The position numbers were made by a program, and so were the translations under genes. A DNA stretch of 64,000 bases from a bacterium (lineage in GTDB: Bacteria; Patescibacteriota; Minisyncoccia; Phycocordibacterales; JBBTRF01), in the NCBI GenBank assembly GCA_037130265.1, contig JBAXTI010000002.1:26870-90869 (forward strand). Direction: 5' to 3'. A model generated the notes under the pieces. The model was given only the letters and a program-made list of their open reading frames with translations, did not search any database and was not told the origin of the DNA. Below, in pieces: positions 1 to 24,546 of this stretch. Positions within the stretch are counted from its first letter, which is position 1. Each line of letters starts with the position of its first letter.

Positions 1-1
1 T

Positions 2-1684
2 GGACACCATCGTCTCTCGATCCTCGACATCGATCCGCGCTCGCATCAGCCGATGGCTTCGGCCGACGGAGCTTTGCGGATTGTTTTCAATGGCGAGATT
101 TACAATTTCAAGCAGGTGAAAGAACAGCTTTCCGGGAAATATCAATTCAAGACTACTTCAGATACGGAAGTGCTCCTGTGTGCCTATAAAGAATGGGGTG
201 TGAATATGACCGAGCAGATTCGCGGCATGTATGCTTTTGCGCTCTACGATACCGCACAGCAGAAGATCGTCCTCATGAGGGATCATGTGGGGATAAAGCC
301 GCTGTACTATTATGCGAAGGCCGGAGTGTTCGCCTTTGCTTCCGAAATGAAGGGTCTCACAGCACTTCTTTCAGCCAAAGGACTGTCTCTGAAGGTACTC
401 GCGGATTCCGTGGAGTTGTTCATTACCCTCGGGTATGTGCCGTCGCCGTACACTATCTACGAAGATGTCTTTCGAGTTGAGAGATCGTCCGTTGTAGAAT
501 ACGATCTCTCGGCAAGGGCAATTTCAAAAAAGGCGACATATCGCCAAAACGTTTCAGTAGTGAAAGGGGAAGAAGAATTTGCTCAATTACTAGAAACACA
601 AGTCCTCTCGCATCTTGTTTCTGACGTGCCGGTTGGGGTATTTTTTTCCGGCGGTACGGACTCCTCTCTCGTTGCCGCTATTTTGCAGAAGCATCGCATC
701 AGTTTGGAGACGTTTAGTATTGCCGTCGATCGAAAAGCTGAGGATCAGGCTTACTTCAAGCGTATTGGTGTGGCACTGCAACTGAAGACAAATGTGTTTT
801 CGTTTGGCGTCGACGAGTTTGATGCAGTGTACGAAGAGGTGATGTCGAAGATCGACGAGCCGACGCATGACAATTCTATTTTTCCGACCTATTTTGTCTC
901 GAAGAAGGCCGCCGAAAAAGTGAAGGTGGTGCTGTCTGGCGAAGGCGGTGATGAGTACTTTTTCGGTTATCACCGCGACACGGTATTGTCAAAGTTGTCT
1001 GCAAAGCAGGATTATAATATTACCTGGCTCGACCGCCTCTTTTTCCTGATGCCGAATGTGCGCTCGAAAAATGCACTCTTTGAGCGTTTTTTTATTCTTT
1101 TTGGCCAGCCGTTTAGTTTTTATCTGCTGCATATGTCGCCTTCGAAGGACCTCGCAAGTCTCGAGGGGTGGCGTCTCTGGAAGGGTTTGTTCAGGCAAAA
1201 TGCCACGACGCCACGTCTGCTCGATCAGGACTTTTATCTCGAAGGTGATCTGCTGAGAAAGACTGATTTTGCCACCTCGTATGTTTCGATAGAGGGTCGC
1301 GTACCACTCCTCGATGTAGATGTGGTGCGAAATAGTACACAATTTTCCGATCAGAGCCTTGTTGGAGGCGTTTCGAAAGCTTTTCTGAAAAAAATATTGA
1401 CACGATATTTGCCGAAGGAGCTGGTGTATCGCAACAAAAGCGGTTTCGGCATTGATCTCCGAGGCTTGTTCAAGAGCTCGCGCCTCTTGAAAAGAGAGTT
1501 GGTCGAGGCACAGCAATATCTGAGGGAACGCTTACTGTTGCGGCCGGAGCATGAGAACGCGGAGCGCTTGATGGCTCGTTATCCAAACCTGGCTTTCGCT
1601 CTCATCTCTTTATTCCGAGTGTTGAAGAATGTTGATTTCAGTGGTGGAGCCGATGACAGTCGTTCGTCTTCTGTATTTAAATAA
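2..1684 (+). CDS. asnB: asparagine synthase (glutamine-hydrolysing) family amidotransferase; 5' end lies outside the window
   Basis: The frame is open from position 2. The translation 'GHHRLSILDIDPRSHQPMASADGALRIVFNGEIYNF...SDTEVLL...' matches the AsnB glutaminase-domain core (RLSIIDLS..GHQPM...IVFNGEIYN). The downstream synthetase domain has the SGGTDSS PP-loop. The N-terminal Cys-containing start is missing at the window edge. Confidence 0.85.
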   Translation, partial: GHHRLSILDIDPRSHQPMASADGALRIVFNGEIYNFKQVKEQLSGKYQFKTTSDTEVLLCAYKEWGVNMTEQIRGMYAFALYDTAQQKIVLMRDHVGIKPLYYYAKAGVFAFASEMKGLTALLSAKGLSLKVLADSVELFITLGYVPSPYTIYEDVFRVERSSVVEYDLSARAISKKATYRQNVSVVKGEEEFAQLLETQVLSHLVSDVPVGVFFSGGTDSSLVAAILQKHRISLETFSIAVDRKAEDQAYFKRIGVALQLKTNVFSFGVDEFDAVYEEVMSKIDEPTHDNSIFPTYFVSKKAAEKVKVVLSGEGGDEYFFGYHRDTVLSKLSAKQDYNITWLDRLFFLMPNVRSKNALFERFFILFGQPFSFYLLHMSPSKDLASLEGWRLWKGLFRQNATTPRLLDQDFYLEGDLLRKTDFATSYVSIEGRVPLLDVDVVRNSTQFSDQSLVGGVSKAFLKKILTRYLPKELVYRNKSGFGIDLRGLFKSSRLLKRELVEAQQYLRERLLLRPEHENAERLMARYPNLAFALISLFRVLKNVDFSGGADDSRSSSVFK

Positions 1685-3875
1685 CATACGAATCAGCCTT
1701 CTTTTTGAAATGATGTCCTTGATTGTCGAAGTCCAAGTACAGTTCCTTTTTTTGAAAAGGGAATAGGCAGAGGAATAAAAAACGGGAGAACGGTTTCTTC
1801 GGATGTAATCTCAAAAAACGATTCAGTGTGAAAAATACAAGAAGTCTTTTTTCGAGAAAGAAGTTGTAGGGTGCAATAACCACTTGCTCCTTACGGTATT
1901 CTTCCATGTTCTCGCTCAATTGCCCCGCCCTCTTCCTAAAGGTGCTTACTTGTTTATTAAATGACCAAAGTGGTGCATGTTGGGAAAAAGCAAACCATAA
2001 AGCATAATCACCAGCAAGGCGATATTTTGAGATATCTGGACACGCCTTTTTCCAGAGTGATTTCTTCCAGAATACACTAGCCTGTTCCACAAAGTAAGCG
2101 CTTCGCCCGTAGGCTCCTTTCTGAAGCCAGTCACGTCGATATGTCAGACATGCCCCAGGAGAAATGACACTACCAACCTCATTGCTCGTTGAGTCGATTC
2201 CTTTAATCCACTCAACCTCTGGATCTGCAGAAAAAATGTTACAGACCGATGCAAAGGCGCCAGCAAGGTAGTTGTCGTCCGAATTAATGTAGGCGAATAT
2301 CTCGCCGGTTGCGCGGGCGAAGCCTTTTTCTATCGCATCGTACATCCCGCCATCTTTTTCGGAATACCACTTGAGCGTGACTTTTTTACAGCGTCCTGGA
2401 TACTCGCCTTTACACAACAGTTGCTCATAGGATTTCACAATGGCAATCGTTTCGTCGGTAGATCCACCATCTTGGATGATGTATTCAATTTCGAAATTGC
2501 CTTCTTGCGAAAGAACGCTATCCATTGTTTCTTTGATATATTTTTCGCCGTTGTAAACCGGGGTAATGATACTAAATTTTAATTCTTCCCCTGGTGTCAC
2601 TTTGCAAACGAACACTGCTTCGGTTCGGTAAAGATGCCTCTCTACTAGGGTGAAGCCAGCTCGAGTGAGTATCGATTCAACGGAAGATCGAACAGGGGAT
2701 CCTTTCGCGGAGTGTAGATGGAAAATAAGAGTGCTGTTGGTCACTGATCGTAACGTTAAAATGAGCTTCGTAGCGTCACGAAGTTCAGTAGGAGTGGTCG
2801 AACAGAACACAACATCTGCCGTTTTTTTATGCTGTTCAGATGATATGTCGATAACAGAAGTTGAAGTCGCTTCGAGTCTTCGTGCAAGGAGTGAATTTGA
2901 ATCATCAGACTTCCTTTTGTCAGTAAAGATCTCGGCAAACGATTTTCCTGGAACGTATCGTTGTATAAGAGCCTTTGCGTCTGGATGTTTCGGTCTCGTC
3001 ATGTTCCAGTTCATGGTCCAAAATATTTTGCGTACCATTTTGAAGATGAGACTTGAAAATGCTGGCGGGAGGCTACTGTACGTATACGAGGCTGCAAGTA
3101 GGTCCTTCATCGGTTCCCACTTGTCGCGTCTTTCGACAATGACCGTCCAGTTTTTTTTGAGAATAGGTAGAAGGCTTTCGTTGTTATCTCTCGCGTATCG
3201 ATGTACAAAAAGTTTCTGTCGCGGATTTTCATAGGGAAGACAGTCGATCAAAAACATAAACGAGGAATCTATGACGTGTATTTCTTCGGCATTCTCGATT
3301 ACGGTGCAATAGTCAAAAATGTTTTCCGTCAGGTTTTTATTTGGCTCGAACACTGCGCAATGTTTGCTTATCAACTCGCGCTTAATGAGATATTTTCTTT
3401 CCGGGTCTTCATGTAGAAAAGCGTAAGCCTCTTTGTGCGGGACTTTTTCAAAAAGGCCCCGCTCTCTTTCAAGATCCCTTTCAACAAAAAAGCTCTCCCA
3501 TTTTTTTAAGAGGGGGAGTCCGGCTATTTCGTAGAGCTGTTTTTCGAACTGGATACTATGTTTGCTCCAGATGAGATAGCTATGGCCAATGATCTTAATG
3601 ACATCAAATTCCATTTCTTCCTTTTGGGGATTGTCGAGAAAAACTGTATTCTCGTTGAGTTTCAAGGGTGTTTTGTCTATCTCGAAAACACGTAGATTTG
3701 TTAAGTCACGGTACATAAAGCGCACTGAAGGGTAGTTGTGTTTTTTGGCAAAAATGGTGACGTGTTCGTACTGCTTGCAATACTCCCTCACCATTCCATG
3801 GCATATGATCTGGTCACCCATTCCAAATGGGTAGTAGAGTAATACCTTGAGTGCTTTGTTGTTAGGGACATTCAT
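1677..3875 (-). CDS. multidomain glycosyltransferase: N-terminal GT9-like (heptosyltransferase-like) module, central unknown domain, C-terminal GT2 domain
   Basis: The N-terminal ~240 aa are paralogous to the adjacent 236-aa ORF and share the identical stretch EIHVIDSSFMFLIDCLPY. The GDxI motif near the N-terminus and the 'IDSSFMFL' motif resemble the GT9 'GNDSGPMHLAAA' region. The C-terminal ~300 aa read 'ITPVYNGEKYIKETMDSVLSQ...DGGSTDET...SDDNY', which is a GT2 signature, and are paralogous to the ORF at 20136-21077. The start could be the GTG at 3935; the ATG at 3875 aligns better with the paralog and avoids overlap with the upstream gene. Confidence 0.65.
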   Translation of the reverse strand: MNVPNNKALKVLLYYPFGMGDQIICHGMVREYCKQYEHVTIFAKKHNYPSVRFMYRDLTNLRVFEIDKTPLKLNENTVFLDNPQKEEMEFDVIKIIGHSYLIWSKHSIQFEKQLYEIAGLPLLKKWESFFVERDLERERGLFEKVPHKEAYAFLHEDPERKYLIKRELISKHCAVFEPNKNLTENIFDYCTVIENAEEIHVIDSSFMFLIDCLPYENPRQKLFVHRYARDNNESLLPILKKNWTVIVERRDKWEPMKDLLAASYTYSSLPPAFSSLIFKMVRKIFWTMNWNMTRPKHPDAKALIQRYVPGKSFAEIFTDKRKSDDSNSLLARRLEATSTSVIDISSEQHKKTADVVFCSTTPTELRDATKLILTLRSVTNSTLIFHLHSAKGSPVRSSVESILTRAGFTLVERHLYRTEAVFVCKVTPGEELKFSIITPVYNGEKYIKETMDSVLSQEGNFEIEYIIQDGGSTDETIAIVKSYEQLLCKGEYPGRCKKVTLKWYSEKDGGMYDAIEKGFARATGEIFAYINSDDNYLAGAFASVCNIFSADPEVEWIKGIDSTSNEVGSVISPGACLTYRRDWLQKGAYGRSAYFVEQASVFWKKSLWKKACPDISKYRLAGDYALWFAFSQHAPLWSFNKQVSTFRKRAGQLSENMEEYRKEQVVIAPYNFFLEKRLLVFFTLNRFLRLHPKKPFSRFLFLCLFPFQKKELYLDFDNQGHHFKKKADSYVI

Positions 3876-3886: not shown

Positions 3887-4597
3887 TTATTCGGTAATAA
3901 TAGTCCAACTCTTTTTCAGTATCGGGAGCTGCCACTCTGGGTTCTGTCGAGAATATCGATGTACAAAACGTTTCTGTTCAGGGTTCTTGTAAGGCAGGCA
4001 GTCAATAAGGAACATAAAAGAAGAGTCGATAACATGAATTTCCTTCGCTTTCTCTATGGTCCTACAATAGTCAAAAATATTGTCAGTGAGCTGTTTGTTG
4101 GGCGTAATAACGTAGTAATCTTTGCCGACATAGGTTCTTTTTATAACAAAGTTTCTACTTGGATCTTCGTGTAAGAATACGAAGTCCCCGATCGGTGCAA
4201 TCTGTCTAATGAGCGAATGTTCTCGATCAAGATCTCTTTTTACCAAAAAGCTCTCCCATTTTTTCTCCAACGGAACTTCGGCGATTGCATAGAATTGCTG
4301 TTCAATCTGAATTCCAGATGTTGCGTCCAGATTATCGAAACCAACAGTAAGAACTTTGTTGTATTTCAAATTCCCAAAACAGTTATTGAGAAAGATACGT
4401 ACTCGAGCCTGCGCATCGTCCCCCTTGATGACGGTAAGGTTTTGTAGGTCACGATACATGAAGGCTACCGAAGAATAGTTGTGGGCTTTTGCAAAGATAG
4501 TCACTCGATCATACCTTTTACAATACTCTCGGACGATGCCGTGGCACATGATGTGATCACCTAGCCCGAGGTGATGATAGATGAGAATACTAGACAT
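3887..4597 (-). CDS. GT9-like (heptosyltransferase-like) single-module protein, paralog of the N-terminal domain of the 1677-3875 gene
   Basis: The 236-aa ORF is by eye about half identical to the N-terminal domain of the neighbouring gene (LGLGDHIMCHGIVREYCKRY..., EIHVIDSSFMFLIDCLPYKNPEQKRFVHRY). It has an ATG start and the same orientation, indicating tandem duplication. Confidence 0.55.
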   Translation of the reverse strand: MSSILIYHHLGLGDHIMCHGIVREYCKRYDRVTIFAKAHNYSSVAFMYRDLQNLTVIKGDDAQARVRIFLNNCFGNLKYNKVLTVGFDNLDATSGIQIEQQFYAIAEVPLEKKWESFLVKRDLDREHSLIRQIAPIGDFVFLHEDPSRNFVIKRTYVGKDYYVITPNKQLTDNIFDYCRTIEKAKEIHVIDSSFMFLIDCLPYKNPEQKRFVHRYSRQNPEWQLPILKKSWTIITE

Positions 4598-4754: not shown

Positions 4755-5495
4755 ATGAAGAAGATTCTCATTATAGGGGAAAGTTGTCGAGATATCTTTG
4801 TGTATTGCAAGGCGAATAGGTTGTGCCCCGATATTCCTGTTCCGGCACTCAGTATTGTGAGTCAAACAGAAAACCCGGGTATGGCAAAAAATGTCGAACG
4901 CAACATTCGGAGTATTTTTGAAAATTGCGACATTGTAACCAATGATGGTTGGGAGAAAGTGACAAAAACAAGATACATGCATCTCGATAGTAATCATATG
5001 TTCATTCGCGTCGACACCGACCACACTATTCCACGCATCGATGTTAAAAAAGTTCCTCTTGGATATGACATCGTCGGTATCTCTGATTACAACAAGGGCT
5101 TCCTCACTGACAAAGATATCCAATATCTTTGCGAACATCATCGTAATGTGTTTATTGATACAAAAAAAATACTGGGTGAGTGGGCAAACAAAGTGAAGTT
5201 CATCAAGATTAATAACTTCGAGTATGAACGCTCCAAGCACTCGATTCCGCCGAAACTCAAAAATAAGATTATCTATACAAAAGGAGAGGCGGGTGCGCAT
5301 TACAAGGGTAAGATGTACCCAGTAAGGCATAAAGTCGAAGTGAAGGATGTTTCCGGTGCGGGCGACAGTTTTTTCGCGGCACTTATCGTAAGGTATGCCG
5401 AGACGGAGGATATTGAAGAAGCTATCCATTTCGCGAATGAGTGCGCATCTAAGGTGGTGCAGCAAAAAGGGGTCTCGGTGATAAAAAGACCCTAG
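4755..5495 (+). CDS. PfkB-family sugar kinase (ribokinase/HldE-kinase-domain-like)
   Basis: The C-terminal 'DVSGAGDSFFAALIV' is the PfkB GAGD anion-hole motif. The N-terminus 'KILIIGESCRD' resembles the RfaE/HldE kinase-domain start. At 246 aa it is short for the family. Confidence 0.7.
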   Translation: MKKILIIGESCRDIFVYCKANRLCPDIPVPALSIVSQTENPGMAKNVERNIRSIFENCDIVTNDGWEKVTKTRYMHLDSNHMFIRVDTDHTIPRIDVKKVPLGYDIVGISDYNKGFLTDKDIQYLCEHHRNVFIDTKKILGEWANKVKFIKINNFEYERSKHSIPPKLKNKIIYTKGEAGAHYKGKMYPVRHKVEVKDVSGAGDSFFAALIVRYAETEDIEEAIHFANECASKVVQQKGVSVIKRP

Positions 5496-5608
5496 GTTCT
5501 TTCCTTAAATTTTGCTGCTGAATGAGGCTAGACACGGTGCTGTCCTTAGGATATTATTGCTCGGTAATTAGTGAATATAGCATATCTATTTTTTTACCTC
5601 GTTTTCTC

Positions 5609-6673
5609 ATGAAAGATCCGAAAAAGCCGATGAAAGCAGCTATTCTCGAGAAGATCGACGAACCTTTGGCGATTAGAGAGGTAGAGTTAACGGACCTTGT
5701 TTCTGGCCAGGTATTGGTTCGGGTGTTGGTGAGTGGTATTTGCGGAGCACAGCTTCAGGAGATTGCGGGCAATAAAGGCAATGCAAAATTCGTCCCTCAT
5801 CTCCTGGGTCACGAAGGCTGCGGCATTGTTGAGGCACACGCTCCCGATGTTACTACCGTGAAGGTTGGCGACAAGGTGGTCATGCATTGGATGAAAGGTG
5901 ATGGCATTGAGGCTGATTTTCCGGTCTATATTTTGAATGGTAAAAAAATCCGCAGTGGCAAGGTGACGACCTTTAGCGAATACTCAGTCGTCTCCGAGAA
6001 TCGCGTCACTGCCGTGCCACACGAGACGCCAAATGATCTCTGTGCGTTGCTTGGCTGCGGATTGTCGACGGCACTTGGAGTGATGGAGAATGAGGCACAG
6101 GTGAAGGTAGGTGAGAGTGTGATGATCGTGGGCGCCGGCGGCTTAGGACTCAATCTTTTGAACGCGGCGATAATCGCCGGCGCCAAGCCAATCATCCTCG
6201 TCGATGTACACGAAAGCAAACGCAAGATGGCGGAGGCTCTCGGCGCGCACCTTTTCATTAATTCAAAAGAAAAAGGTATCAAGGAAGAATTGATTGAAAA
6301 ACTGAATCTGAAAGATCTCGACGTCATTGTTGACACTTCTGGCAACAAGCACGCTGTGGAAGGAACCCTGCCATTGCTCGGCGGTAACGGCCGCTACATT
6401 TTTGTCGGCCAGCCGAAACCGGGTGAGACAATTGAGCTCAAGAACGCGCACCACATGTTTGACGGCAAGGGTAAGATGATTAAGGCCACTCAGGGCGGCA
6501 AATTCAATCCGACCAAGGACATCCCGCGTTATTTGCAAATGCATAAGACCGGCGCGCTTAAGATCCATCACATTATTAGCCACCGCATCGAGCTCGACAA
6601 GATTAACGAGGCGATTGACATGGTGCGCAACGGCCAGGCTGGCCGCATTATCATTGATATTTGCCCAGAATAA
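5609..6673 (+). CDS. zinc-dependent medium-chain alcohol/sugar dehydrogenase (MDR family)
   Basis: 'GICGAQLQEI', 'GHEGCGIVE' and 'GDKVV' are catalytic-Zn ligand region motifs. The Rossmann motif 'VMIVGAGGLGL' is present. The start is ambiguous among in-frame ATGs at 5522, 5609 and 5630 (MKAAIL). Confidence 0.8.
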   Translation: MKDPKKPMKAAILEKIDEPLAIREVELTDLVSGQVLVRVLVSGICGAQLQEIAGNKGNAKFVPHLLGHEGCGIVEAHAPDVTTVKVGDKVVMHWMKGDGIEADFPVYILNGKKIRSGKVTTFSEYSVVSENRVTAVPHETPNDLCALLGCGLSTALGVMENEAQVKVGESVMIVGAGGLGLNLLNAAIIAGAKPIILVDVHESKRKMAEALGAHLFINSKEKGIKEELIEKLNLKDLDVIVDTSGNKHAVEGTLPLLGGNGRYIFVGQPKPGETIELKNAHHMFDGKGKMIKATQGGKFNPTKDIPRYLQMHKTGALKIHHIISHRIELDKINEAIDMVRNGQAGRIIIDICPE

Positions 6674-6697: not shown

Positions 6698-7690
6698 ATG
6701 ACTATCGTTGCTAAAACGAACAGTTCTAAAGCCTCTTCGCTTCTTGAGGCGTACAAAAAGATGCAGCTGATCCGCATCACAGAACAGGAGATCGCCAATT
6801 TTTATTTGGCAAACAAAGTGATGAGCTTCGTACACTTTTATGTCGGCCAAGAGGCGGTTGCGGTGGGTGTTTGTGCGGCGCTCGCAGCCGGCGACAAGGT
6901 CCTCGGCAACCATCGCTCGCACGGCCATTATTTAGCGAAGGGTGGCGACCTAAAGCGCATGGTCTGCGAGTTGCTTGGCAAATCGCACGGCTCTTCAAAA
7001 GGGAAGGGTGGCTCGATGCACATGATCGACAAGTCGGTGAATTTTGTCGGCTCGACCCCGATCCTCGGCAGCGTCGTGCCGCTCGCTTGCGGCGTCGCTT
7101 TCGAGCAGAAATATAATAAAAAGAATGATATTACTGTTTCGTTTGTCGGCGACGGCGCTTCCGAAGAGGGTGTGGTGTACGAGACAATCAACCTCGCGGC
7201 GTTGTTCAAGCTTCCGTACCTTATCGTCGTCGAGAACAATCTCTACTCGGTGAATTCAAAGATCAAAGACCGCCGGTCCGAAGGCTACAGCGTCGAAAAG
7301 ATCGTCACCGGTCTCGGTGCCCGTTACCTGAAAGCCGACGGTAACGACCTCGAAGACGTGCTCGCGATGGCGACCGAAGCAGTGAAGGTCATTCGCGCGG
7401 GTGGTGGACCAATAGTGCTCGAATGTATCACCTATCGTCACATGGCCCACAGTGCGCCGCTTTTTGACGACGCCCAAGGCTATCGCGAAGAAGATCCGAT
7501 TGAGAAGCGCTTGGAGCGCGACCCTATCAAGCGGTTGAAGCAGACCCTTTTAGCCGCCGACGTTTCGGAAGAGCAGTTCGCACAGATCGAAAAAGAGACT
7601 TTCGACACTATACTCGCCGCGATTGCTTTCGCGAAGGACGCACCATTTCCAGCGAAGGAGACTTTATATACTGACGTCTACGCGAAATAA
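6698..7690 (+). CDS. ThDP-dependent dehydrogenase E1 component alpha subunit (PDH/acetoin-DH E1-alpha-like)
   Basis: 'YVGQEAVAVG', 'HRSHGHYLAKGGD', 'GKGGSMHM', 'GDGASEEG' and 'YRHMAHS' fit the E1-alpha ThDP-binding fold. Confidence 0.8.
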   Translation: MTIVAKTNSSKASSLLEAYKKMQLIRITEQEIANFYLANKVMSFVHFYVGQEAVAVGVCAALAAGDKVLGNHRSHGHYLAKGGDLKRMVCELLGKSHGSSKGKGGSMHMIDKSVNFVGSTPILGSVVPLACGVAFEQKYNKKNDITVSFVGDGASEEGVVYETINLAALFKLPYLIVVENNLYSVNSKIKDRRSEGYSVEKIVTGLGARYLKADGNDLEDVLAMATEAVKVIRAGGGPIVLECITYRHMAHSAPLFDDAQGYREEDPIEKRLERDPIKRLKQTLLAADVSEEQFAQIEKETFDTILAAIAFAKDAPFPAKETLYTDVYAK

Positions 7691-15246: not shown

Positions 15247-15255
15247 GGTATTTGC

Positions 15256-16092: not shown

Positions 16093-16122
16093 TGGTGTGT
16101 TGCGAAAAAGAATATTGAAATA

Positions 16123-16407: not shown

Positions 16408-16427
16408 ATATATTAATAATAACAAAA

Positions 16428-16457: not shown

Positions 16458-16520
16458 ACATTCAACCTCCAACTTCAATAATTGTCCCCTTCTTCCAAAT
16501 CTGCTATTCTAAAGCCTCAT

Positions 16521-17669
16521 ATGTCAAAATTGTCGATCATTATCCCTTGTTTCAACGAGGTGCGGACTATAGATGTCCTCATTGCTAGGGTGGAAGCGGC
16601 ACCCCTACCGAAAGGCTGGCAGAAGGAGCTGGTGATTGTTGATGATTACTCTACTGACGGGACTCGAGGTAAGCTTACGGCGTACGAAGGTAAACATACT
16701 GTCGTCTATCGAGAAAAGAATGGTGGCAAAGGCGCCGGTTTGAAGAGCGGCATGTTGAAGGTGTCGGGTGACTACGTCATCATTCAAGATGCCGATTTTG
16801 AATACGACCCCAACGAGTACCAGCTAATTTTGGGCGAGTTGGAGAAAAGCGGTCGAAAAAATGCAGTGGTTTTCGGCTCGCGCCTCATTGGGCAGAATAA
16901 ATTTTTTAACGCCGTCTATTTTTATGGCAATCGGACGATGACCGCGGCCTTCAATTTTCTGTTTGGTAGCCATATCACCGACATCACCACTTGCTACAAG
17001 CTCTTTCCTCGAGAAGCAGTACCTTTTCTCATGCGCTGGTCGGAGGATGGTTTTGTGTACGATGCAGTGTATCTGACCTACGAGCTTTTCCGTTTTGACA
17101 ATCACATCATTGAAGTGCCAATCACCTACACCGCGCGTACGCGAAAAGAGGGGAAGAAGGTCAATTGGAAGCACGGAGTGAAGGCATTCTACGCTATGGC
17201 TCATGTGAAGGTTGTCGAATCGATGATTGGCCGACCGATTGCCGATCTCTTTGCAAAATACGCCCAAATCGTGCGCTTTTTCATCTCCGGTGGCGCAGGG
17301 GTATTCACCAACCTGTTTTTACTCTACGTCCTCACGGAACTCGTGCATATTCACTATCTCGTATCAGCAACCGTCTCGTTCCTCGCAGCTGTTTGCGTGA
17401 ATTTTTTGATGCAAAAATTCTGGGCCTTCAAAGACGACCATGCCGACGCCGAGAAAGACGACCGCGAGCAGAAAGCCACATATATCCAGGCGATCCATTT
17501 TTTTGTAGTGCAGCTGGTGAATCTCATTGCGAATACTGGCCTGCTATATGTTGCTGTGACTCATCTCGGTTTACAGTACCTCTGGTCCGAAGCCATCATT
17601 TCCGCGTTACTTGCCTCCGTGACCTATTTTGTAAGTAAAAAATACATCTTTTCCAGCCAGAAAAATTAA
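16521..17669 (+). CDS. polyprenyl-phosphate glycosyltransferase (GT2, DPM1/ArnC/GtrB-like) fused to a C-terminal GtrA-like membrane domain
   Basis: 'LSIIIPCFNE', 'VIVDDYSTDGT' and 'IIQDADFEYDP' are GT2 signatures. The C-terminal ~130 aa have four hydrophobic helices typical of GtrA. The ORF-track start at 16482 is a TTG; the ATG at 16521 is preferred. Confidence 0.8.
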   Translation: MSKLSIIIPCFNEVRTIDVLIARVEAAPLPKGWQKELVIVDDYSTDGTRGKLTAYEGKHTVVYREKNGGKGAGLKSGMLKVSGDYVIIQDADFEYDPNEYQLILGELEKSGRKNAVVFGSRLIGQNKFFNAVYFYGNRTMTAAFNFLFGSHITDITTCYKLFPREAVPFLMRWSEDGFVYDAVYLTYELFRFDNHIIEVPITYTARTRKEGKKVNWKHGVKAFYAMAHVKVVESMIGRPIADLFAKYAQIVRFFISGGAGVFTNLFLLYVLTELVHIHYLVSATVSFLAAVCVNFLMQKFWAFKDDHADAEKDDREQKATYIQAIHFFVVQLVNLIANTGLLYVAVTHLGLQYLWSEAIISALLASVTYFVSKKYIFSSQKN

Positions 17670-19405
17670 CGCACCTTTCGAATCGTGTACAAGCTACCGA
17701 GGTGTTCGGCTTGTAAGAATTCTCTCAGAGGATGTGGCTCTTGGGGTGTCCAGCGGTAGCGGCCTTCTGAATGGAAACAGGTTTGTTTCTCGAGTTCAGT
17801 TGCGTTACAAGGTCTTTCGTCATCTTGCGTGATGAGCCAGATTGTTTTTGTTCCGAGATTCGTCTCCGGTGAAGTAAGCTTTTTCATTATAGTACCGAGC
17901 TCTTCTTGGTTGTATGCGAGGTAGGTGAGCGGCTTAAAGGCGACCTGCTCCTTCACAACGCCTGGATGCTGCATCAAAAAATCGAAACGGCCCATGCTTT
18001 GACGTTTTGGATCAAGTATGAGCATGGATCGGTCGTTCACTGGCAAGGTCATACGCAGCGCTGACCAATGTTCGACGAAGGCAATGCTTGGATCGTTGTA
18101 TTTTTTCATCAGCGTTTCGAGGAGTAGTTTTTCAGTCGACGGTTTCCAGTACAAAGAGATGGATTGAGTACCGATCACGAGGAAGAGGGTCGAGGCTAGC
18201 ACGATACCGCTCCAGCGTATGCACACACCCTGTTCGGAGATCCGTGCATCGAGTAATTCTGCCAATACCGCGATTGAAAAGGCACAGGCGGTGGTGAAAA
18301 TGACACTATACCGTGGTGCTGATCCAAAACCGATGGCTATATGGAAGATCAGATATACAAAAATCGGATGAGTGCATGCAATGAGTAGATACAGTCGGTC
18401 CTTTTTTTGGTTGGTTGCGCTATCGTCGAATTTTTTCATCAAGAAATAAATACCGATTAGCGCCAGGACAATATAGAGGAAGACTAGCGGCTGGCTCTGG
18501 ACTGCGGTGATCGCCGGCTTGTAGATGCGCGAGAGCCAGTCAATATGAACATCATCGCTTTTGTAGGAAATATTCGAAAATGAGCCACTCATCCAATTCA
18601 TGAAGATCGCGCGATAGATGAAGGAGATCTGCGTTATGCCGGCCACGATCACCCAGTACCAGTATTTTTTTACGTGCCGCCAGAGGTCGGCGAAGGTGAA
18701 GTGTTTCAGTGCGAGCGCGTAGATGCCGATGAGACCGATCGAAGCGGCGCCGACATAATTTTGGCAGAATGCGAGCACACCCATCCAGAAGAGCAATGCT
18801 ACGTATCGGTCCTTCTTCATAAATGGCTGGCCGAGGTGGCTCTGGTGTGTCTGATAATACTGTTGGGCGATAAATAGCGCGCTCGCCACCGCCATCAGCA
18901 TGAGGTGCGTTACCCAGACCTTTGCGGTGTGGAGCATCTGTAGCAGTAATACGTCAGAAAGTAGGAGTATGGCAAACAACGAGAGGGTGAGACCGAGTGT
19001 TTGCGGAATTTGCTTCTTTCGAAAGAAGAAGATACTGCCTGCCAGTGCGAAAAGAGCGGTTGCGCCGTTGATGAGGCGTAAAAAATGCAGTAATTCGCCA
19101 GTGTGAAGGGCGATATACACTTTGGTTGTCAGGATAGAGAAGCCCGACTTCAATACGATAGCAGTGATTATTGGGAGGATGGCCAAGGTGTCGATGTAAG
19201 TTTGCACGCCACCATAATAGTTGCCCGAATAGGAGAATTCCCAGCCCGGGAGGGTGCCTTTTTGGATCGCCGAGAGCGAGCTTGTGAGAAAGTAACTCTC
19301 ATCGACGATGATGTCGGGGTTATTGCCGTAGGGATTTGGTGAGAGGGTTGTTACGACAATAAACATTGCCACCAGTGCGACAAGGGTATGTTGTATATTC
19401 TTCAT
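17666..19405 (-). CDS. GT-C fold polytopic membrane glycosyltransferase (PMT/ArnT, GT39/GT83-like)
   Basis: It has more than 10 predicted TM helices in the first ~430 aa, then a soluble C-terminal domain. It is convergent with, and overlaps by 4 nt, the lipid-sugar synthase gene, which is the classic donor-synthase/GT-C pairing. The ATG at 19405 (MKNIQHT...) is preferred over 19570. Confidence 0.6.
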   Translation of the reverse strand: MKNIQHTLVALVAMFIVVTTLSPNPYGNNPDIIVDESYFLTSSLSAIQKGTLPGWEFSYSGNYYGGVQTYIDTLAILPIITAIVLKSGFSILTTKVYIALHTGELLHFLRLINGATALFALAGSIFFFRKKQIPQTLGLTLSLFAILLLSDVLLLQMLHTAKVWVTHLMLMAVASALFIAQQYYQTHQSHLGQPFMKKDRYVALLFWMGVLAFCQNYVGAASIGLIGIYALALKHFTFADLWRHVKKYWYWVIVAGITQISFIYRAIFMNWMSGSFSNISYKSDDVHIDWLSRIYKPAITAVQSQPLVFLYIVLALIGIYFLMKKFDDSATNQKKDRLYLLIACTHPIFVYLIFHIAIGFGSAPRYSVIFTTACAFSIAVLAELLDARISEQGVCIRWSGIVLASTLFLVIGTQSISLYWKPSTEKLLLETLMKKYNDPSIAFVEHWSALRMTLPVNDRSMLILDPKRQSMGRFDFLMQHPGVVKEQVAFKPLTYLAYNQEELGTIMKKLTSPETNLGTKTIWLITQDDERPCNATELEKQTCFHSEGRYRWTPQEPHPLREFLQAEHLGSLYTIRKVR

Positions 19406-19466
19406 TTCAGAATTGTAGCATGGCTGATATATGCACGGTGCCGCTCCAGTGTTGTATAATGCTTCA

Positions 19467-20102
19467 ATGCATACTGTGGCATGGAAAATCTGGCGCGGGC
19501 AGTCTCTGGCGAGGATCTTGATGAACCGAGCGTTGTCAGCATACACGATCACCGGAAGGGTGGTGGACATTGGCGGTGGACGTTCGCCGGATTATTTTGA
19601 GTATCTGAAAAAAGAAAAATTCACATCGATCGAGCTGGTAGACTTTTCTTTCTCAAGGATCGATTTCGAAAAGGATGCTCTACCATTTGCTGATGCGAGC
19701 GTCGATACAGTGCTCTGCATGAATACCCTTGAGCACGTCTACAATTATCGCTTTCTTACCGCCCAGATGTACCGCGTCCTTAAAAAAGACGGCAAGCTGA
19801 TCGGATTCGTGCCCTTTCTCATAAACTATCATCCCGACCCCCACGATTTTTTCAGGTATACCAAGGAATCCCTGACCAAGATATTTATTGAAGCTGGTTT
19901 TGCCGATATCTCGATTCGCTCTGTCGGTGGTGGGTCTTTTTTGGTGAACTACAATATGATCATGTTATCGCTGCCGAAGGTATTGCGCGTACTGATGTTC
20001 CCTTGTTATCTCATTCTCGACAGGCTTTTTTTGAAATTTAGGCCAAAGGCGGCTGAGCGCTATCCGCTCGGCTACGTCTTTGTCGCCACCACGCCAAAAT
20101 AG
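19467..20102 (+). CDS. class I SAM-dependent methyltransferase
   Basis: 'VVDIGGGRS' is motif I. 'VDTVLCMNTLEHV' and 'LKKDGKLI' are present. TATAAT at 19455-19460 lies 6 nt before ATG 19467, so the transcript may be leaderless. Confidence 0.7.
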   Translation: MHTVAWKIWRGQSLARILMNRALSAYTITGRVVDIGGGRSPDYFEYLKKEKFTSIELVDFSFSRIDFEKDALPFADASVDTVLCMNTLEHVYNYRFLTAQMYRVLKKDGKLIGFVPFLINYHPDPHDFFRYTKESLTKIFIEAGFADISIRSVGGGSFLVNYNMIMLSLPKVLRVLMFPCYLILDRLFLKFRPKAAERYPLGYVFVATTPK

Positions 20103-20135
20103 TCCTGAGCCATCAATATTCGTTATTTTTCGTGT

Positions 20136-21077
20136 ATGCTTAATGCTATGTCCTCACAATTCTACCCAAGAATTTCCATCGTTACCGTATGTTTTAATCG
20201 TGCGCAGTATATCGCCGAAACCATCGAGTCGGTGCTTTCTCAGGGTTATCCCAATTTGGAATACATCGTTATCGATGATAATTCGACCGACGGGAGCTGG
20301 GAAGTCATTCAGAAATACAAAGACAAACTCGCATACATTGAGCAAATTCCTGGAAAGCGGGATACGCCAGTGGAGTCCCTCAACTATGGCCTTTCAAAAA
20401 CAACCGGCGAGATCATGGCCACGATAAATGATAAGAATATTTACATGCCAAAAAGCCTTTTTGCTGTGGCCGGAGTATTTTCGGCTTTCCCTCAAGTAGA
20501 ATGGCTTACGGGTGTGGGTCTCATTATAGACAAGGGCGGTATTATTACTAATATTATCCCGATACGGAAGGGTTTTTATGAGCATCTTATCAATCTGCCT
20601 TGGAACATCCAGCACGAGTCCACTTTTTGGAGGCGTTCACTCTGGAAACGTACCGGTTCTCAGTACGACCCAAAGTATTCCTGGGTCTTCGACATGGGAT
20701 TATGGCGAAAATTCTTTTTTGAGGCACCACTATATCATCTCAATACGGTGGTGGGAGCCTATCGAAAGTTGCCTTCGGCTCGTACAACACTGAACAAGGA
20801 AGAATTCTATCATTACTGTGCTCTTGCACGCCAAGACATGCGCACGCAAGCAAAAAAAACAGATCTCGCATATGCAGAATTGTATCGAGCACTTAGATAT
20901 TTCAAGCCAATCTTGCGAAACATTCCCGACGCTGTATACGCAAGAATTCCTTTTTTAAAAAAAATGTCACACGATTCGATTGCCTTTCAAAACGTTACAA
21001 TTGATGACTTCGGTCCGGGCCACTTAAGGTTCCGTCGGTACAAAAGAAACCCATTCCGCACCATGTTTCCATGGTAA
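20136..21077 (+). CDS. family 2 glycosyltransferase, paralog of the C-terminal domain of the 1677-3875 gene
   Basis: 'ISIVTVCFNRAQYIAETIESVLSQ..EYIVIDDNSTDGS'. The conserved 'VEWLTG...FWRRSLWKR' block is shared with the 752-aa protein. Confidence 0.8.
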   Translation: MLNAMSSQFYPRISIVTVCFNRAQYIAETIESVLSQGYPNLEYIVIDDNSTDGSWEVIQKYKDKLAYIEQIPGKRDTPVESLNYGLSKTTGEIMATINDKNIYMPKSLFAVAGVFSAFPQVEWLTGVGLIIDKGGIITNIIPIRKGFYEHLINLPWNIQHESTFWRRSLWKRTGSQYDPKYSWVFDMGLWRKFFFEAPLYHLNTVVGAYRKLPSARTTLNKEEFYHYCALARQDMRTQAKKTDLAYAELYRALRYFKPILRNIPDAVYARIPFLKKMSHDSIAFQNVTIDDFGPGHLRFRRYKRNPFRTMFPW

Positions 21078-21089
21078 TTGCCTAGTATA

Positions 21090-22073
21090 TTAATAGAGCA
21101 TGATGGTCAGGTATTTGTTGGGGAAGTATGTTTTTTTGTTGAGATAGTAGTTCCAGTCCATTACCTCATTTTTTGCAATAACGTGTGGAATATCACCGTA
21201 GTAAGCCGCAAAATGGCTTAATGTACTGTCTGAGCCAATTACCGCATTGCACGAAGCCAGTGTAAAAAGGTCGGTGACAACATCATTCTTGCTCACGGTT
21301 ACATTGAGTTCGTAAAACAGCGAAAGGTCAACGGGTCCGTCCGAGGCGACGACGAATCCGACCTCCTGAGCACTCTTTCCGTAGTTCCGTAAATATTCTC
21401 TGAGGATTTCGACAAATCTCACCTGATCAACGAAATATTTTCCGTTCTTGAAGGTCTTGTAGTCGCTCTGACGGATGTGAACGCCTACGACGTGCGCGTA
21501 TTTTGAACGCAAAGGTTCAAGTAGGCTATCGACTTTTTTAGAAATACTCATCGTTGGGGCAATTATCCCCACTATTTTATGGTGATGCTTCCGTATACCG
21601 TCAGGATTACGAAATACACCACCATTTATCGCAGAAAAAAAAAGTATATCCTTATTCGAACCCTCCATTTTTTCAAGCAGATCGATTTTTTTAGAAGTTG
21701 CAACTGTCGGTGGTAGGTAATAGGGGTCAGTTGAACTTTCGTTCGAGTACACGATTGAATTTTTTCGAAAAAAAGTGATTGGCCTAACTACCACAGTTTT
21801 GTATCCGGTTCGCCAAAGACGGACGAACAATGATCCTTTTCTAAAATTTCTCAATCCAATTCGACGAAATGGCACGGAGAAAAAACGAAGTGTCCAGTTT
21901 TTAGAACAGAAGCCGTGAAAAGATGAAGTATGCTCAAAGAAAGAGTAATTTATACAAGGGTAATTTCGTTCAATGGCGTATGCTAAAATACTAATGTAAT
22001 TCCAGAGCTGGTTGGCTAACTCCCCGCCGTCGTGTTGGAGAATAATGACTCTCTTCAAATTCTTTTGCCTCAT
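21090..22073 (-). CDS. GT11-like alpha-1,2-fucosyltransferase family protein
   Basis: 'VGVHIRQSDY' matches HxRRGDY. 'GSDSTLSHFAAYYG' matches the GT11 C-terminal SxFxxxAAWL motif. The N-terminus 'VIILQHDGGELANQLWNY' resembles the GT11 'GGLGNQMFQY' start. The ATG at 22073 is preferred over the upstream ORF-track start at 22181. Confidence 0.65.
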   Translation of the reverse strand: MRQKNLKRVIILQHDGGELANQLWNYISILAYAIERNYPCINYSFFEHTSSFHGFCSKNWTLRFFSVPFRRIGLRNFRKGSLFVRLWRTGYKTVVVRPITFFRKNSIVYSNESSTDPYYLPPTVATSKKIDLLEKMEGSNKDILFFSAINGGVFRNPDGIRKHHHKIVGIIAPTMSISKKVDSLLEPLRSKYAHVVGVHIRQSDYKTFKNGKYFVDQVRFVEILREYLRNYGKSAQEVGFVVASDGPVDLSLFYELNVTVSKNDVVTDLFTLASCNAVIGSDSTLSHFAAYYGDIPHVIAKNEVMDWNYYLNKKTYFPNKYLTIMLY

Positions 22074-22205
22074 TTCGCTCTTCCCAACTAGCCACTTCAA
22101 AGGATTTTTAGACATATCCAAAAAGTATAAGGTGTATGGTCGGGTTTGTAAAATATTAAGCTCGGACTGAAAAGGTGGCACCTTCGGCTTCGGTGCGGTA
22201 TAGTT

Positions 22206-24488
22206 ATGCGCATGAATACTGAATATATTGCAAAATGGGTGGCGCGCATTGGCGTGTTCCTGCTCTTGGTGGTTCCGTTTGTTGTGGCCGACGGCAGTCT
22301 TTTTCCCAACTCATTCTTCCCGTTTATTACCGGCAAGGCATTCGTCTTCCGTATCCTTACGGAGATTATTTTGGCAGCGTGGCTCGTCCTCGCCTTTGTA
22401 GATGAACATTATCGCCCTCGCTCATCCTGGATCGCTCGGGCGGTTGGCATCTTCCTCCTTGTAATGTTTATTGCCGACCTCGGCAGTGCCAATCCATTTA
22501 AGAGTTTTTGGTCTAACTTCGAGCGCATGGAGGGTTTTGTTACCTTAGCGCACCTCGGCGCTCTTTTTCTTGCGGCCGGCTCGCTTTTGAAGACTGAAGC
22601 ACTGTGGAATCGTTTTTGGCAGAGCTCTTTGGTGGCGAGCGTGCTGATGGCGGCATACGGTTTCTTCCAGCTCGCTGGTTGGGCGGCGATCCATCAGGGG
22701 AGTACACGTCTTGATGCGGCACTTGGCAACTCTGCGTACCTCGCGGTGTACATGATCTTCCACGTCTTTATTGCGATTTTCCTCTTGCTTCGATACGTAA
22801 AAAAGTATGCAGGCACTACGCAGTGGTCGGCATGGTTGCCTTCTTTGTACGGCGTCGTAGCCCTGATTGATTTTATTGTTTTGTACTATACGGCAACACG
22901 AGGAGCTTTAATCGGTGTTGTCGCCGGCGTTCTTGTGATCGCTCTTGGATTGACCTTGGGGACTTTCTTTTCCTCGACATTGTCCGACAAAGAGCAGGTG
23001 TTGTTGCGAAAAATCGGTGGAAGCATTTTGATTGTTGTCCTACTCGGTATTGGCGCACTCTTTCTTGGTAAGAACAGCGACTTTGTGAAAAAGAGCGAGG
23101 TACTTTCTCGATTTAGTAATCTCGCTACTTTCAAAGTTGCGTCAATTGCTGAAGGCGAAGGGAAGTCCCGTTTCAATATCTGGTCAATGGCATTAGATGG
23201 GGTAAAAGAGCGACCGATCCTTGGTTGGGGACAGGAAAGTTTCAATTATCTCTTCTACAAGTACTACTCACCAGAGATGTACGACCAGGAGCCGTGGTTT
23301 GATCGCGCACACAACGTGTTTCTCGACTGGCTTGTGGCCGGTGGTTTTCTTGGCCTGCTTTCATACCTGTCGATTTTCGCAGCACTCATTGTATTGGTCT
23401 GGAAAAAACACATGCCATTCAGTTTGCCAGAGCGTCTCACTCTCATGGCATTGGTGGTTGCGTATTTTGTCCACAATATCTTCGTGTTCGATCAGCTCGT
23501 GAGTTATCTCTACTTCTTCCTTGTTCTCGCGTACATTCATGCGCTGTATCATCACACCCGCGAAGGGCAGGGTACGACCAAGATGGGTGAGTGGTGGAAG
23601 TCTCATCAAAAAACCCTTCAGGAAGGCGGTACCCCTATCGTTCTTGTGCTGTTTGTCGTGGTCGTGTGGTCGGTAAATTGGAGTGGTTTCGTGCAGGCGA
23701 CTGGCTTGATCGATGCTTTGACCCCACAGAAAGAAGGCTTGGCGAAAAATATCGGGATCTTCAAGGATCTGCTCGATCGACGCACTATGGGATTGTACGA
23801 GACACGCGAGCGTTTGGCGGAAGTGGCGGTGCAGATGAGTCGGGCCAATGTTGACCAGACACAAAAGACGGAGATCTTCAACCTTGCGTATGCTGAACTG
23901 AAAAAGCAGACCGAAGAGATTCCAACTGATGTTCGATATCTGTATTTCATCTCGTCGTTCCTGTCTTCGTATCAGCGATATTCCGAGGCGTTGCCGTATG
24001 CGATGAAGGCGGTGGAGTTGTCGCCAAAGAAGCAAATGCTCCTCATGAATCTCGGCAGCATTTATTTGAACATTGGCCAGGTGAAGGAAGCGTCGGCAGC
24101 ATACAAGACTGCATTTGATCTTGAGCCGAAGTATGAAGAGGCGCGATTGTCGTATGCGTTGTCTGCGGTATATGCGGGCGATGAAGTGCTGCAAAAACAG
24201 CTTCTCCAGTCGGTGTACGGAACAACCTTGATGAGCGATCAGCGATTCTTGCAGGCATATATCAATACAAAACAGCCGCAGAAAGCGATTCATGCTTTGA
24301 GTGCCTTGGTGGCGTCTACGGTTCCGGACGATATTCAACTTCGTCTGAAGTTGGCGTCGCTGTATCTGCAGATTGGAGACAAGGCGGGGGCGATAGCTCA
24401 GGTGAAAAAGGCTGGTGAGCTCCATCCGGAATTTGCTCAGGAGGTGCCAGGGTATCTGAAGGAGATTGCGAACTACAAAGGGAATTGA
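22206..24488 (+). CDS. O-antigen ligase / Wzy_C-family polytopic membrane protein with C-terminal TPR repeats (WaaL/PglL-like)
   Basis: About 12 TM helices are predicted. 'RAHNVFLDWLVAGGFLGLLSYL' matches the Wzy_C catalytic-loop region. The C-terminal ~250 aa contain TPR-like repeats (AYKTAFDLEPKYEEARLSYA...). Confidence 0.75.
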   Translation: MRMNTEYIAKWVARIGVFLLLVVPFVVADGSLFPNSFFPFITGKAFVFRILTEIILAAWLVLAFVDEHYRPRSSWIARAVGIFLLVMFIADLGSANPFKSFWSNFERMEGFVTLAHLGALFLAAGSLLKTEALWNRFWQSSLVASVLMAAYGFFQLAGWAAIHQGSTRLDAALGNSAYLAVYMIFHVFIAIFLLLRYVKKYAGTTQWSAWLPSLYGVVALIDFIVLYYTATRGALIGVVAGVLVIALGLTLGTFFSSTLSDKEQVLLRKIGGSILIVVLLGIGALFLGKNSDFVKKSEVLSRFSNLATFKVASIAEGEGKSRFNIWSMALDGVKERPILGWGQESFNYLFYKYYSPEMYDQEPWFDRAHNVFLDWLVAGGFLGLLSYLSIFAALIVLVWKKHMPFSLPERLTLMALVVAYFVHNIFVFDQLVSYLYFFLVLAYIHALYHHTREGQGTTKMGEWWKSHQKTLQEGGTPIVLVLFVVVVWSVNWSGFVQATGLIDALTPQKEGLAKNIGIFKDLLDRRTMGLYETRERLAEVAVQMSRANVDQTQKTEIFNLAYAELKKQTEEIPTDVRYLYFISSFLSSYQRYSEALPYAMKAVELSPKKQMLLMNLGSIYLNIGQVKEASAAYKTAFDLEPKYEEARLSYALSAVYAGDEVLQKQLLQSVYGTTLMSDQRFLQAYINTKQPQKAIHALSALVASTVPDDIQLRLKLASLYLQIGDKAGAIAQVKKAGELHPEFAQEVPGYLKEIANYKGN

Positions 24489-24546
24489 TAGAATAGGTAG
24501 GTGAGTGACTGACAACCTGTTGGACACCCAAAAAATGTATACGTGA

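Follow-up and report, generated by a model that had tools for sequence, protein, structure and literature searches.

The first 24,488 nucleotides of the 64,000-nucleotide stretch analysed here (the window; positions 26,870 to 90,869 of contig JBAXTI010000002.1) hold a glycan-assembly locus from an uncultured, ultra-small bacterium of the candidate phyla radiation (CPR). We hold, with moderate confidence, that this locus makes a cell-surface glycoconjugate in a Saccharibacteria-like cell that probably lacks an outer membrane, and that it does so by a route of the kind used for Gram-positive S-layer glycans. The locus is a mosaic of three modules: a Wzy_C-family ligase candidate at a conserved anchor beside murB and secA, an accessory cassette with a membrane glycosyltransferase of predicted GT-C fold, and a cassette in which a compact transferase of predicted GT9-like fold, here called X, is found with a PfkB-family kinase, a medium-chain dehydrogenase/reductase (MDR) and an E1 alpha/beta pair. 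What stands out most is the conserved anchor of the ligase, a GT-C family that has no name and the X cassette. We regard as established which families the genes belong to, the folds predicted for two of the proteins, the synteny and this modular structure.

Every enzymatic step, the order of the steps and the acceptor are what we infer from these parts, and the same holds for ‘amidation’ by the AsnB homologues and for the roles of methylation. Assembly would take place on the cytoplasmic face of the membrane, where soluble GT4, GT2, GT11-like and GT9-fold transferases, some of them multi-domain, would build a heteropolysaccharide on undecaprenyl phosphate. AsnB homologues and methyltransferases would modify the polymer, and one methylation may cap the chain; by analogy with WsaE of Geobacillus stearothermophilus, one methyltransferase of the locus is a candidate capping enzyme. 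X, the MDR, the E1 alpha/beta pair and the PfkB kinase would supply and install an unusual sugar, perhaps one with a pyruvate-derived two-carbon unit. Wzt, with its C-terminal glycan-binding domain, and Wzm would carry the finished lipid-linked chain across the membrane, and the Wzy_C+TPR enzyme would move it en bloc from the lipid carrier to an acceptor, most likely Ser, Thr or Tyr residues of secreted surface proteins. Outside the membrane, an acquired GT2–GtrA and GT-C pair would add a single-sugar side branch, with a polyprenyl-phosphate sugar as donor. An earlier reading of the window, made from the sequence alone, had proposed much of this pathway. Its logic fits every family assignment that could be tested and matches both the published S-layer glycan model (PMC2943079) and the account of transmembrane glycosylation in PMC8035078, but it has to be qualified in that the locus is a mosaic, the ligase is not locus-specific and no initiating transferase was found.

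Gene content and layout of the locus

The window is part of a 165-kb metagenome contig (ENA). Families were assigned by listing open reading frames (ORFs) and by Pfam and NCBIfam profile searches, which reproduced the family list of the sequence-only reading: the glycan-assembly locus is real. Twenty closely spaced genes occupy positions 1–24,488, with all intergenic gaps below 200 bp, and 18 of them match the families called before. The earlier figure of seventeen consecutive genes was an undercount, an endonuclease/exonuclease/phosphatase (EEP)-family gene (8988–9788) and an HTH_17 gene (16123–16407) having been missed. Pfam and NCBIfam returned the GT4, PfkB, MDR, E1 alpha/beta, Wzm/Wzt, methyltransferase and Wzy_C/TPR calls, and Pfam returned both AsnB-type glutamine amidotransferases, AsnB1 (1–1684, plus strand; Asn_synthase/GATase_7) and AsnB2 (12168–13958, minus strand), which are 32% identical to each other. 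The four GT2 enzymes claimed are reached only if a GT2–GtrA fusion is counted (1677–3875, 9891–10721, 20136–21077 and 16521–17669), and the GT11 call is borderline.

The locus extends about 5.6 kb beyond the left window edge and as a whole comes to some 30 kb and 25 genes. AsnB1 is cut by that edge, its frame being open from base 2, and is 600 aa long in the contig; to the left of the window lie its remainder, a GT4 gene, a methyltransferase gene, three further GT4 genes and then a gene for a PKD/LTD surface protein. To the right of the Wzy_C+TPR gene follow murB, secA, a phospholipase D-type gene and enolase. Two further loci are collinear with the window wherever sequence is available, with proteins 70–93% identical: L002, from a metagenome-assembled genome (MAG) of Saccharibacteria, where the comparison spans E1 alpha to enolase, and the metagenomic locus L010, where it spans AsnB2 to enolase.

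The genes fall into at least nine divergent or convergent units on both strands, and a single operon was rejected on that count. The sequence-only reading had allowed that the locus might prove to be split across unrelated operons with terminators between all genes; the units are indeed at least nine, but the gaps between them stay below 200 bp and no convincing terminator was found at any gene boundary of the locus. Terminator-like sites were somewhat commoner than in shuffled sequence, and promoter-like sites in the window no more frequent than in shuffled sequence. Because such sites are weak evidence, operon structure was judged from spacing and strand alone. Rfam and tRNA scans of the window found nothing. 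Between enolase and a gene for an MFS transporter lies a small gene (about 31107–31505, minus strand) with a weak Pfam match to PemK toxin.

The Wzy_C ligase candidate and its acceptor

The last gene of the locus (22206–24488, plus strand) encodes a 760-aa candidate ligase or O-oligosaccharyltransferase (O-OTase) of the Wzy_C family, in which Pfam finds Wzy_C (PF04932, 76.2 bits against a cutoff of 31.7) and TPR. Hydropathy gives at least 10 transmembrane (TM) segments with an extracytoplasmic loop of about 80 residues at aa 295–374, then one further TM segment and a C-terminal TPR domain of about 260 residues (TPR matches at aa ~530–745). Residues R232, R302, R322, R367 and H369 are invariant in 14 homologues, H369 standing in an EPWFDRAHN motif. 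These Arg and His residues may correspond to the catalytic residues of WaaL, and the H-N-X9-G-XX-G of the protein fits what we take to be the WaaL motif, H[NSQ]X9GXX[GTY]. At window positions 22175–22215, the annotated ATG is preceded by a −10-like TATAGT, which ends one base before it and is shared by L002. The start of the homologue in locus L003 corresponds to a second ATG, six bases further downstream. The ligase mRNA may be leaderless or nearly so.

The ligase family is large (at least 4,217 clusters), uniform in length (about 715–760 aa) and named ‘O-antigen ligase family protein’ by annotation pipelines in CPR MAGs. Among species-representative genomes, relatives were found in only two, both of them MAGs that carry the label uncultured Candidatus Saccharibacteria (79% and 41% identical). 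Synteny was analysed in 80 metagenomic loci with full-length relatives (36–84% identity), 39 of which had enough sequence downstream and 43 of which served for the upstream genes. secA was found downstream of the ligase on the same strand in 32 of the 39, and murB together with secA in 25. Upstream, Wzx-like genes were present in 14 of the 43 and Wzm/Wzt in only three or four; Wzx-like genes also precede the orthologue in L003 and in the distant CPR locus L005, whose order is secA–murB–Wzy_C–GT-C–GtrA–AsnB–GT2–GT9–Wzx. The ligase is thus not specific to this locus but a widely conserved CPR gene, usually upstream of murB–secA. Since neither its sequence nor its position shifts when the glycan genes upstream of it differ, we read it as a donor-tolerant terminal transferase and not as a polymerase; from a repeat-unit-specific polymerase, such a pattern would not be expected. 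The anchor holds for many CPR loci, most of them environmental; its extension to all Saccharibacteria was rejected, as it fails in Southlakia. A literature search pairing Saccharibacteria or CPR with O-antigen ligase found no relevant paper.

A protein acceptor would be favoured by the WsfB/PglL-like architecture of the enzyme together with Ser/Thr-rich signal-peptide proteins that lie 15–40 kb downstream of the locus, one of them of 4,810 aa, and that are candidate acceptors; a wall acceptor would be favoured by the proximity of murB and by where ABC-exported polymers usually end up in monoderms. Neither is established. On the second view, which we consider unlikely though a serious contender, the polymer would be joined to peptidoglycan or a membrane glycolipid, as a secondary cell-wall polymer or lipoglycan, by the Wzy_C+TPR enzyme or by an LCP-type enzyme encoded elsewhere. 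The ligase gene is near murB, a gene for peptidoglycan precursor synthesis, in 25 of the 39 loci and in L005; monoderms normally attach their ABC-exported polymers, teichoic acids and rhamnose polysaccharides among them, to the wall (PMC8035078); in NCBIfam, Wzt best matches TagH-type exporters of teichoic acid; and neither an S-layer nor a pilin gene was recognised in the window. Against this, no LCP gene was found among the window ORFs scanned, the Wzy_C+TPR architecture is that reported for the protein O-OTases WsfB and PglL (PMC2943079), and adjacency to murB and secA may merely reflect conserved housekeeping gene order.

We think it improbable that the Wzy_C+TPR protein is instead a Wzy/TuaE-type polymerase of some Wzx-dependent glycan, incidental beside an ABC-type locus whose exported polymer is attached in another way. 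The Wzx-like genes upstream of its orthologues (14 of 43 loci, and L003 and L005) would fit such a role, as would the breadth of the Pfam family, which covers polymerases too, and the lack of a sequence match to solved WaaL. Wzy polymerases, however, diverge together with their repeat unit, whereas these orthologues keep 36–84% full-length identity and invariant loop motifs despite a complete change of the upstream glycan genes. The adjacent pathway here, in L002 and in L010 is moreover of the ABC type, which needs no polymerase, and the window has no Wzx gene.

Several points weigh against the reading that we favour, that of a ligase passing an ABC-exported chain to surface protein in a Saccharibacteria-like cell. 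A Wzy_C domain alone cannot tell ligases from polymerases, both being included in the Pfam family, and a profile of the TM part of the ligase retrieved no PDB sequence at E ≤ 10, with no detectable similarity to the solved structures of WaaL, PglL or Wzy. Southlakia, a cultured Saccharibacterium, has a ligase-family gene, SEML1_0863, that encodes 450 aa without TPR and lies away from murB and secA, adjoining a sugar transferase gene. Neither the window ORFs scanned nor the gene calls of the 6 kb left of the window included an initiating polyprenyl-phosphate sugar-1-phosphate transferase of the WecA/WbaP type; its gene may lie in another part of the genome, like wecA in E. coli. We recognised no gene for an S-layer protein or a pilin in the window, where a scan for prepilin motifs gave one false match inside a transferase. 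With at least nine transcription units on both strands, co-regulation is not established, and the Saccharibacteria-like placement of the host rests on the labels of two MAGs.

Homologues of the unusual genes, where labelled, are nearly all from CPR/Patescibacteria (Paceibacterota, Kaiserbacteria, Minisyncoccota, Parcubacteria and others), with one from a Nitrospira sp. CPR bacteria have, to our knowledge, neither lipopolysaccharide (LPS) nor an outer membrane. The absence of an outer membrane in this host is plausible because the nearest MAGs are labelled Candidatus Saccharibacteria and the homologues are almost all CPR-labelled. An LPS O-antigen was considered and rejected, the host being CPR and nothing related to lipid A lying nearby.

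Further along the window, the genes at 39547–62687 (plus strand) together look like a surface or adhesion gene block. Five consecutive ORFs (39547–43951) have signal-peptide-like N-termini and no Pfam match. They are followed by the 4,810-aa ORF (44034–58466), which has a signal-peptide-like N-terminus, 27% Ser+Thr and 14% Gly. Pfam matches in it are limited to two Peptidase_S74 (endosialidase chaperone) stretches, with the best match near aa 4368, a bacterial surface Ig-like domain at the C-terminus and HCBP_related, matched weakly over the whole protein. The ORF probably encodes a giant surface protein, possibly a glycan acceptor. After it (58472–62687) come two proteins of about 690 aa with three Laminin_G_3 (concanavalin-like lectin) domains each.

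The export unit, the accessory cassette and the X cassette

The genes to which export is assigned lie in a six-gene unit on the minus strand (9891–16407), in which neighbouring genes overlap or are at most 30 bp apart. All six were identified by Pfam: an HTH_17 regulator (16123–16407), the ABC-2 permease Wzm (15256–16092; PF01061, 69.9 bits), the ATPase Wzt (13963–15246; PF00005, 81.8 bits), AsnB2, a GT4 (10718–12181) and a GT2 (9891–10721). The Wzm and Wzt genes are 9 bp apart, and Wzt ends in the glycan-binding domain Wzt_C (PF14524, 38.8 bits against a cutoff of 30.4), as does the Wzt of L002. This combination suggests that the lipid-linked chain is exported when complete, and probably with a capped end. 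The unit is collinear in L002 and L010, with proteins 71–90% identical. Between the HTH_17 and GT2–GtrA genes lies a divergent control region (16416–16455) with the best sigma70-like promoter of the 1–20 kb interval, on the minus strand (TTGACA-17-TATTAT with TG), and three (A/G)TGTCAA boxes, two of which are found at the same place in L002. These boxes may be an operator at which the HTH_17 protein, encoded at the head of the Wzm/Wzt unit, acts.

The accessory cassette (16361–22193) is a 5.8-kb insertion or deletion relative to the closest relatives: blastn homology to L002 ends at 16360 and restarts at 22194, and the cassette is absent from L010 too. Its G+C content is 0.41–0.49, against about 0.50–0.52 in the flanks, and it looks like an acquired decoration cassette. 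It encodes a GT2 polyprenyl-phosphate sugar synthase fused to a GtrA-type flippase domain (16521–17669, plus strand), the GT-C-fold protein (17666–19405, minus strand), an S-adenosylmethionine-dependent methyltransferase (19521–20102, plus strand), a GT2 (20136–21077, plus strand) and a GT11-like GT-B enzyme (21090–22115, minus strand). Pfam identifies the methyltransferase and the GT2, and its GT11 match is marginal (24.2 bits against a cutoff of 23.9); the same weak call recurs beside homologous cassette genes in loci L004 and L008. The nearest collinear homologues of the GT-C, GT2–GtrA and GT11-like proteins are in the Paceibacterota locus L004, at 46, 52 and 41% identity, respectively.

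In the synthase, Pfam finds Glycos_transf_2 and GtrA_DPMS_TM, with a GtrA domain score of 77.9 bits (PF04138), and its best PDB matches are DPMS (5mlz, E = 1.5e-13), ArnC and GtrB. Its neighbour, a polytopic membrane protein of 579 aa, yielded no Pfam, NCBIfam or PDB-sequence match, and none of its 81 homologues, which come from CPR lineages where the source is labelled, has a Pfam domain. One homologue is fused to GtrA and two to GT4. An AlphaFold model built with 32 homologues (pLDDT 88, pTM 0.90) found its best structural match in eukaryotic ALG12, not in ArnT or YfhO, and an Asp–Glu pair in the first outer loop is invariant. The earlier GT-C call, for which profile searches give no match, thus stands at the level of the predicted fold. 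In distant CPR loci, the gene adjoins GT2–GtrA or GtrA, and in L005 it adjoins Wzy_C–murB–secA.

X itself (3887–4597, minus strand) is a compact GT-B protein of 236 aa. Its family has 2,801 representatives at 50% clustering, nearly all of 220–250 aa, and some members are fused to GT2, GT47 or GT34 domains, which fits a role in glycan building. The predicted fold is closest to GT9, but X is about 100 residues shorter than GT9 enzymes and has no Pfam match even at E ≤ 5, PF01075 included; PDB sequence searches were empty or irrelevant, and hhalign of the family against two GT9 proteins gave a probability of 0.6%, with an alignment limited to the N-terminal G-D motif. Filing X as GT9 was rejected on the strength of that alignment, which took in the motif alone. 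The neighbouring three-part glycosyltransferase (1677–3875, minus strand; 732 aa) consists of a long-form X module with the GT9-like fold (aa 1 to ~270), an extension of about 160 residues and a GT2 domain (aa ~435–732; Pfam match at aa 455–572 in the numbering of the 752-aa ORF). Its N-terminus is 55% identical to X, and its aa 1–428 are 45% identical to the 406-aa long-form homologue P0088. Of the duplicated GT9-like module described in the sequence-only reading, the duplication and, as modelled, the fold hold up, while membership of the GT9 family is unproven.

The other genes of the cassette are on the plus strand. The PfkB kinase (4755–5495; Pfam PfkB) appears closest to heptose-7-phosphate 1-kinase (RfaE domain I/HldA), its best NCBIfam match being TIGR02198 rfaE_dom_I (100.6 bits, below the cutoff) and its top PDB match the heptose-7-phosphate kinase HldA (4e84). 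It is the only part of an ADP-heptose supply present, GmhA, GmhB, an adenylyltransferase domain and HldD being absent from the locus. The zinc-type MDR (5537–6673; ADH_N, ADH_zinc_N) has PDB matches like class III alcohol dehydrogenase. The thiamine pyrophosphate-dependent E1 alpha (6698–7690; E1_dh, 232.7 bits) and E1 beta (7717–8790; Transket_pyr, Transketolase_C) match the NCBIfam models for the two E1 subunits (alpha and beta) of pyruvate dehydrogenase below cutoff, and the pair has no E2 or E3 nearby, with no lipoyl or E3 genes in the locus. The EEP-family gene that follows (8988–9788; Exo_endo_phos, 29.9 bits) encodes a possible phosphatase; its G+C content, 0.586, is the highest in the locus, the window as a whole standing at 0.49. 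The gene is kept in L002 (73%), is absent from the X cassettes of other CPR lineages and appears to be a lineage-specific addition.

We compared six contexts of the X cassette: this contig, Minisyncoccota, a Vogelbacteria-like contig, Taylorbacteria, another CPR genome and a transposase-flanked contig. In all six, X lies about 50 bp from, and divergent to, MDR–E1 alpha–E1 beta inside a glycan locus; PfkB is present in five, a short-chain dehydrogenase/reductase taking its place in the sixth. The cassette proteins are 63–70% identical across lineages and X 51–64%, compared with 56–70% for SecA, and by sequence identity the cassette appears about as strongly conserved as SecA. That PfkB, MDR, E1 alpha/beta and EEP belong to ordinary carbon metabolism (acetoin or pyruvate handling) and lie among glycan genes by chance, in a locus that is not one system, is very hard to believe: the E1 subunits and the MDR do score best against pyruvate dehydrogenase E1 and alcohol dehydrogenase models, and the window has no nucleotidyltransferase or NDP-sugar dehydratase, but against this stand the arrangement in six of six contexts (five for PfkB), the conservation across CPR lineages, the absence of E2 and E3 nearby and the E1 alpha/beta pairs known to add two-carbon branches to sugars, such as Plm8/Plm9 and AviB1/AviB2 (PMC4802897).

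With low confidence and by analogy, the X cassette may yield a two-carbon-extended or branched sugar, which the MDR would reduce and the kinase would act on as well. A supply of 4-keto sugar by an NDP-hexose 4,6-dehydratase has no gene in the window; epimerase/dehydratase-family genes lie near the cassette in loci L009, L090, L091 and L092. In L091 (10638–12548), from another CPR genome, the cassette has as neighbours Wzm/Wzt and a PMT_2-type GT-C to which a GtrA domain is fused, the same functional layout as in the window but with a different GT-C family. In L092 (7789–10898), the X/MDR/E1/PfkB cassette is bordered by several integrase or transposase genes (rve, HTH_Tnp_1), a copy that suggests mobility of the cassette as a unit.

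Significance and likeness to known systems

CPR/Patescibacteria live in attachment to other microbes, and it is their surface that determines the host they bind. The locus supplies a parts list for one CPR surface glycan and a conserved terminal enzyme to target, and its layout, a variable locus beside a conserved anchor, could explain surface diversity at the level of strains. It also brings to light two large protein families without a name, the GT-C proteins, which are found only among CPR-labelled or unlabelled metagenomic proteins, and the 236-aa GT9-fold transferase, and a five-gene X/MDR/E1/PfkB cassette that is uncharacterised and whose chemistry is testable in vitro. Work on the pili of Saccharibacteria has called glycosylation in these bacteria unexplored (PMC11623550). 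In transposon sequencing of one Saccharibacteria species, the exopolysaccharide-type genes SEML1_0081–0083 were essential or gave a growth deficit when inactivated, and SEML1_0863, the O-antigen-ligase-family gene of Southlakia, showed a growth deficit in two of three data columns.

A bolder reading joins two claims, and we offer it tentatively, as doubtful on balance: that the Wzy_C+TPR protein is the terminal enzyme of a general CPR surface glycosylation, fed by hypervariable Wzx- or ABC-type loci, and that the X cassette makes and installs a type of sugar undescribed in cell-surface glycans. If this were true, the Wzy_C+TPR enzyme would be the monoderm counterpart of an O-antigen locus plus WaaL, and the sugar would possibly be pyruvate-derived, two-carbon-extended or branched and phosphorylated at the anomeric position.

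For the X cassette, one parallel lies in the antibiotic pathways of actinomycetes. Stand-alone E1 alpha/beta pairs add pyruvate-derived two-carbon branches in the paulomycin, avilamycin and kosinostatin pathways, where Plm8/Plm9, AviB1/AviB2 and their kosinostatin counterparts share with our pair a place in a sugar cluster, the lack of E2 and E3 and an adjoining reductase (PMC4802897). Those enzymes act, however, on NDP-4-keto-deoxyhexoses made by dehydratases of the same cluster, genes that are not seen here, and a GT9-fold transferase together with a PfkB kinase is not among their described partners (PMC4802897). X resembles the GT9 heptosyltransferases WaaC, WaaF and TibC in its predicted fold and in an N-terminal G-x-G-D motif that aligns with the GT9 N-terminus, and the neighbouring kinase, closest to HldA/RfaE-I, recalls the ADP-heptose pathway. 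Unlike GT9 enzymes, X is some 100 residues shorter and fails PF01075 and hhalign, and the rest of the ADP-heptose pathway is absent from the locus.

Like WaaL and PglL/PilO, the ligase candidate has numerous TM helices, a Wzy_C domain and conserved Arg and His residues in a large outer loop; a further likeness is its conserved place next to glycan loci that vary, which suggests donor tolerance. It differs from WaaL in some 260 additional TPR residues and in a host that probably has no lipid A-core. The accessory cassette follows the plan of the multi-component transmembrane glycosylation systems, by which completed polymers receive single sugars on the outer side of the membrane: genes for a GT-A polyprenyl-phosphate sugar synthase, a GtrA-type flippase and a GT-C adjoin one another, as in CsbB/GtcA/YfhO, GtrB/GtrA/GtrX and ArnC/ArnT, and an invariant acidic pair stands in the first outer loop of the GT-C (PMC8035078). 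Unlike in those systems, the GT-C here lacks PMT_2, YfhO or any other Pfam signature, and GtrA is fused to the synthase.

Taken whole, the locus comes closest to the S-layer glycan loci of Paenibacillus alvei CCM 2051T and G. stearothermophilus. It departs from them in the CPR host, in a flippase domain fused to GT2, in a GT-C of an unnamed family and in a GT9-fold/MDR/E1/PfkB cassette without counterpart there; no initiating WsaP/WsfP-type transferase, rml genes or S-layer gene were seen here, and the ligase holds a conserved murB–secA position instead of lying inside a mobile cluster. The low-GC, partly multi-operon layout is shared with these S-layer glycan loci, and so would be a methyl cap read by Wzt: in G. 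stearothermophilus NRS 2004/3a, a 2-O-methyl cap is proposed to be recognised by that protein (PMC2943079). The slg locus of P. alvei encodes wsfA (an AsnB homologue), wsfB (a Wzy_C+TPR O-OTase), wzm/wzt, and wsfH/wsfD for lipid-linked glucose branching (PMC2943079). Our locus matches it in Wzm/Wzt, multi-domain transferases, an asparagine-synthase homologue, a Wzy_C+TPR protein as final transferase, and the pairing of a polyprenyl-phosphate sugar synthase with a second membrane enzyme, as in the side-branch glucosylation by WsfH and WsfD. The combination of parts is already known, P. alvei having the same set, and the system is not new as a kind.

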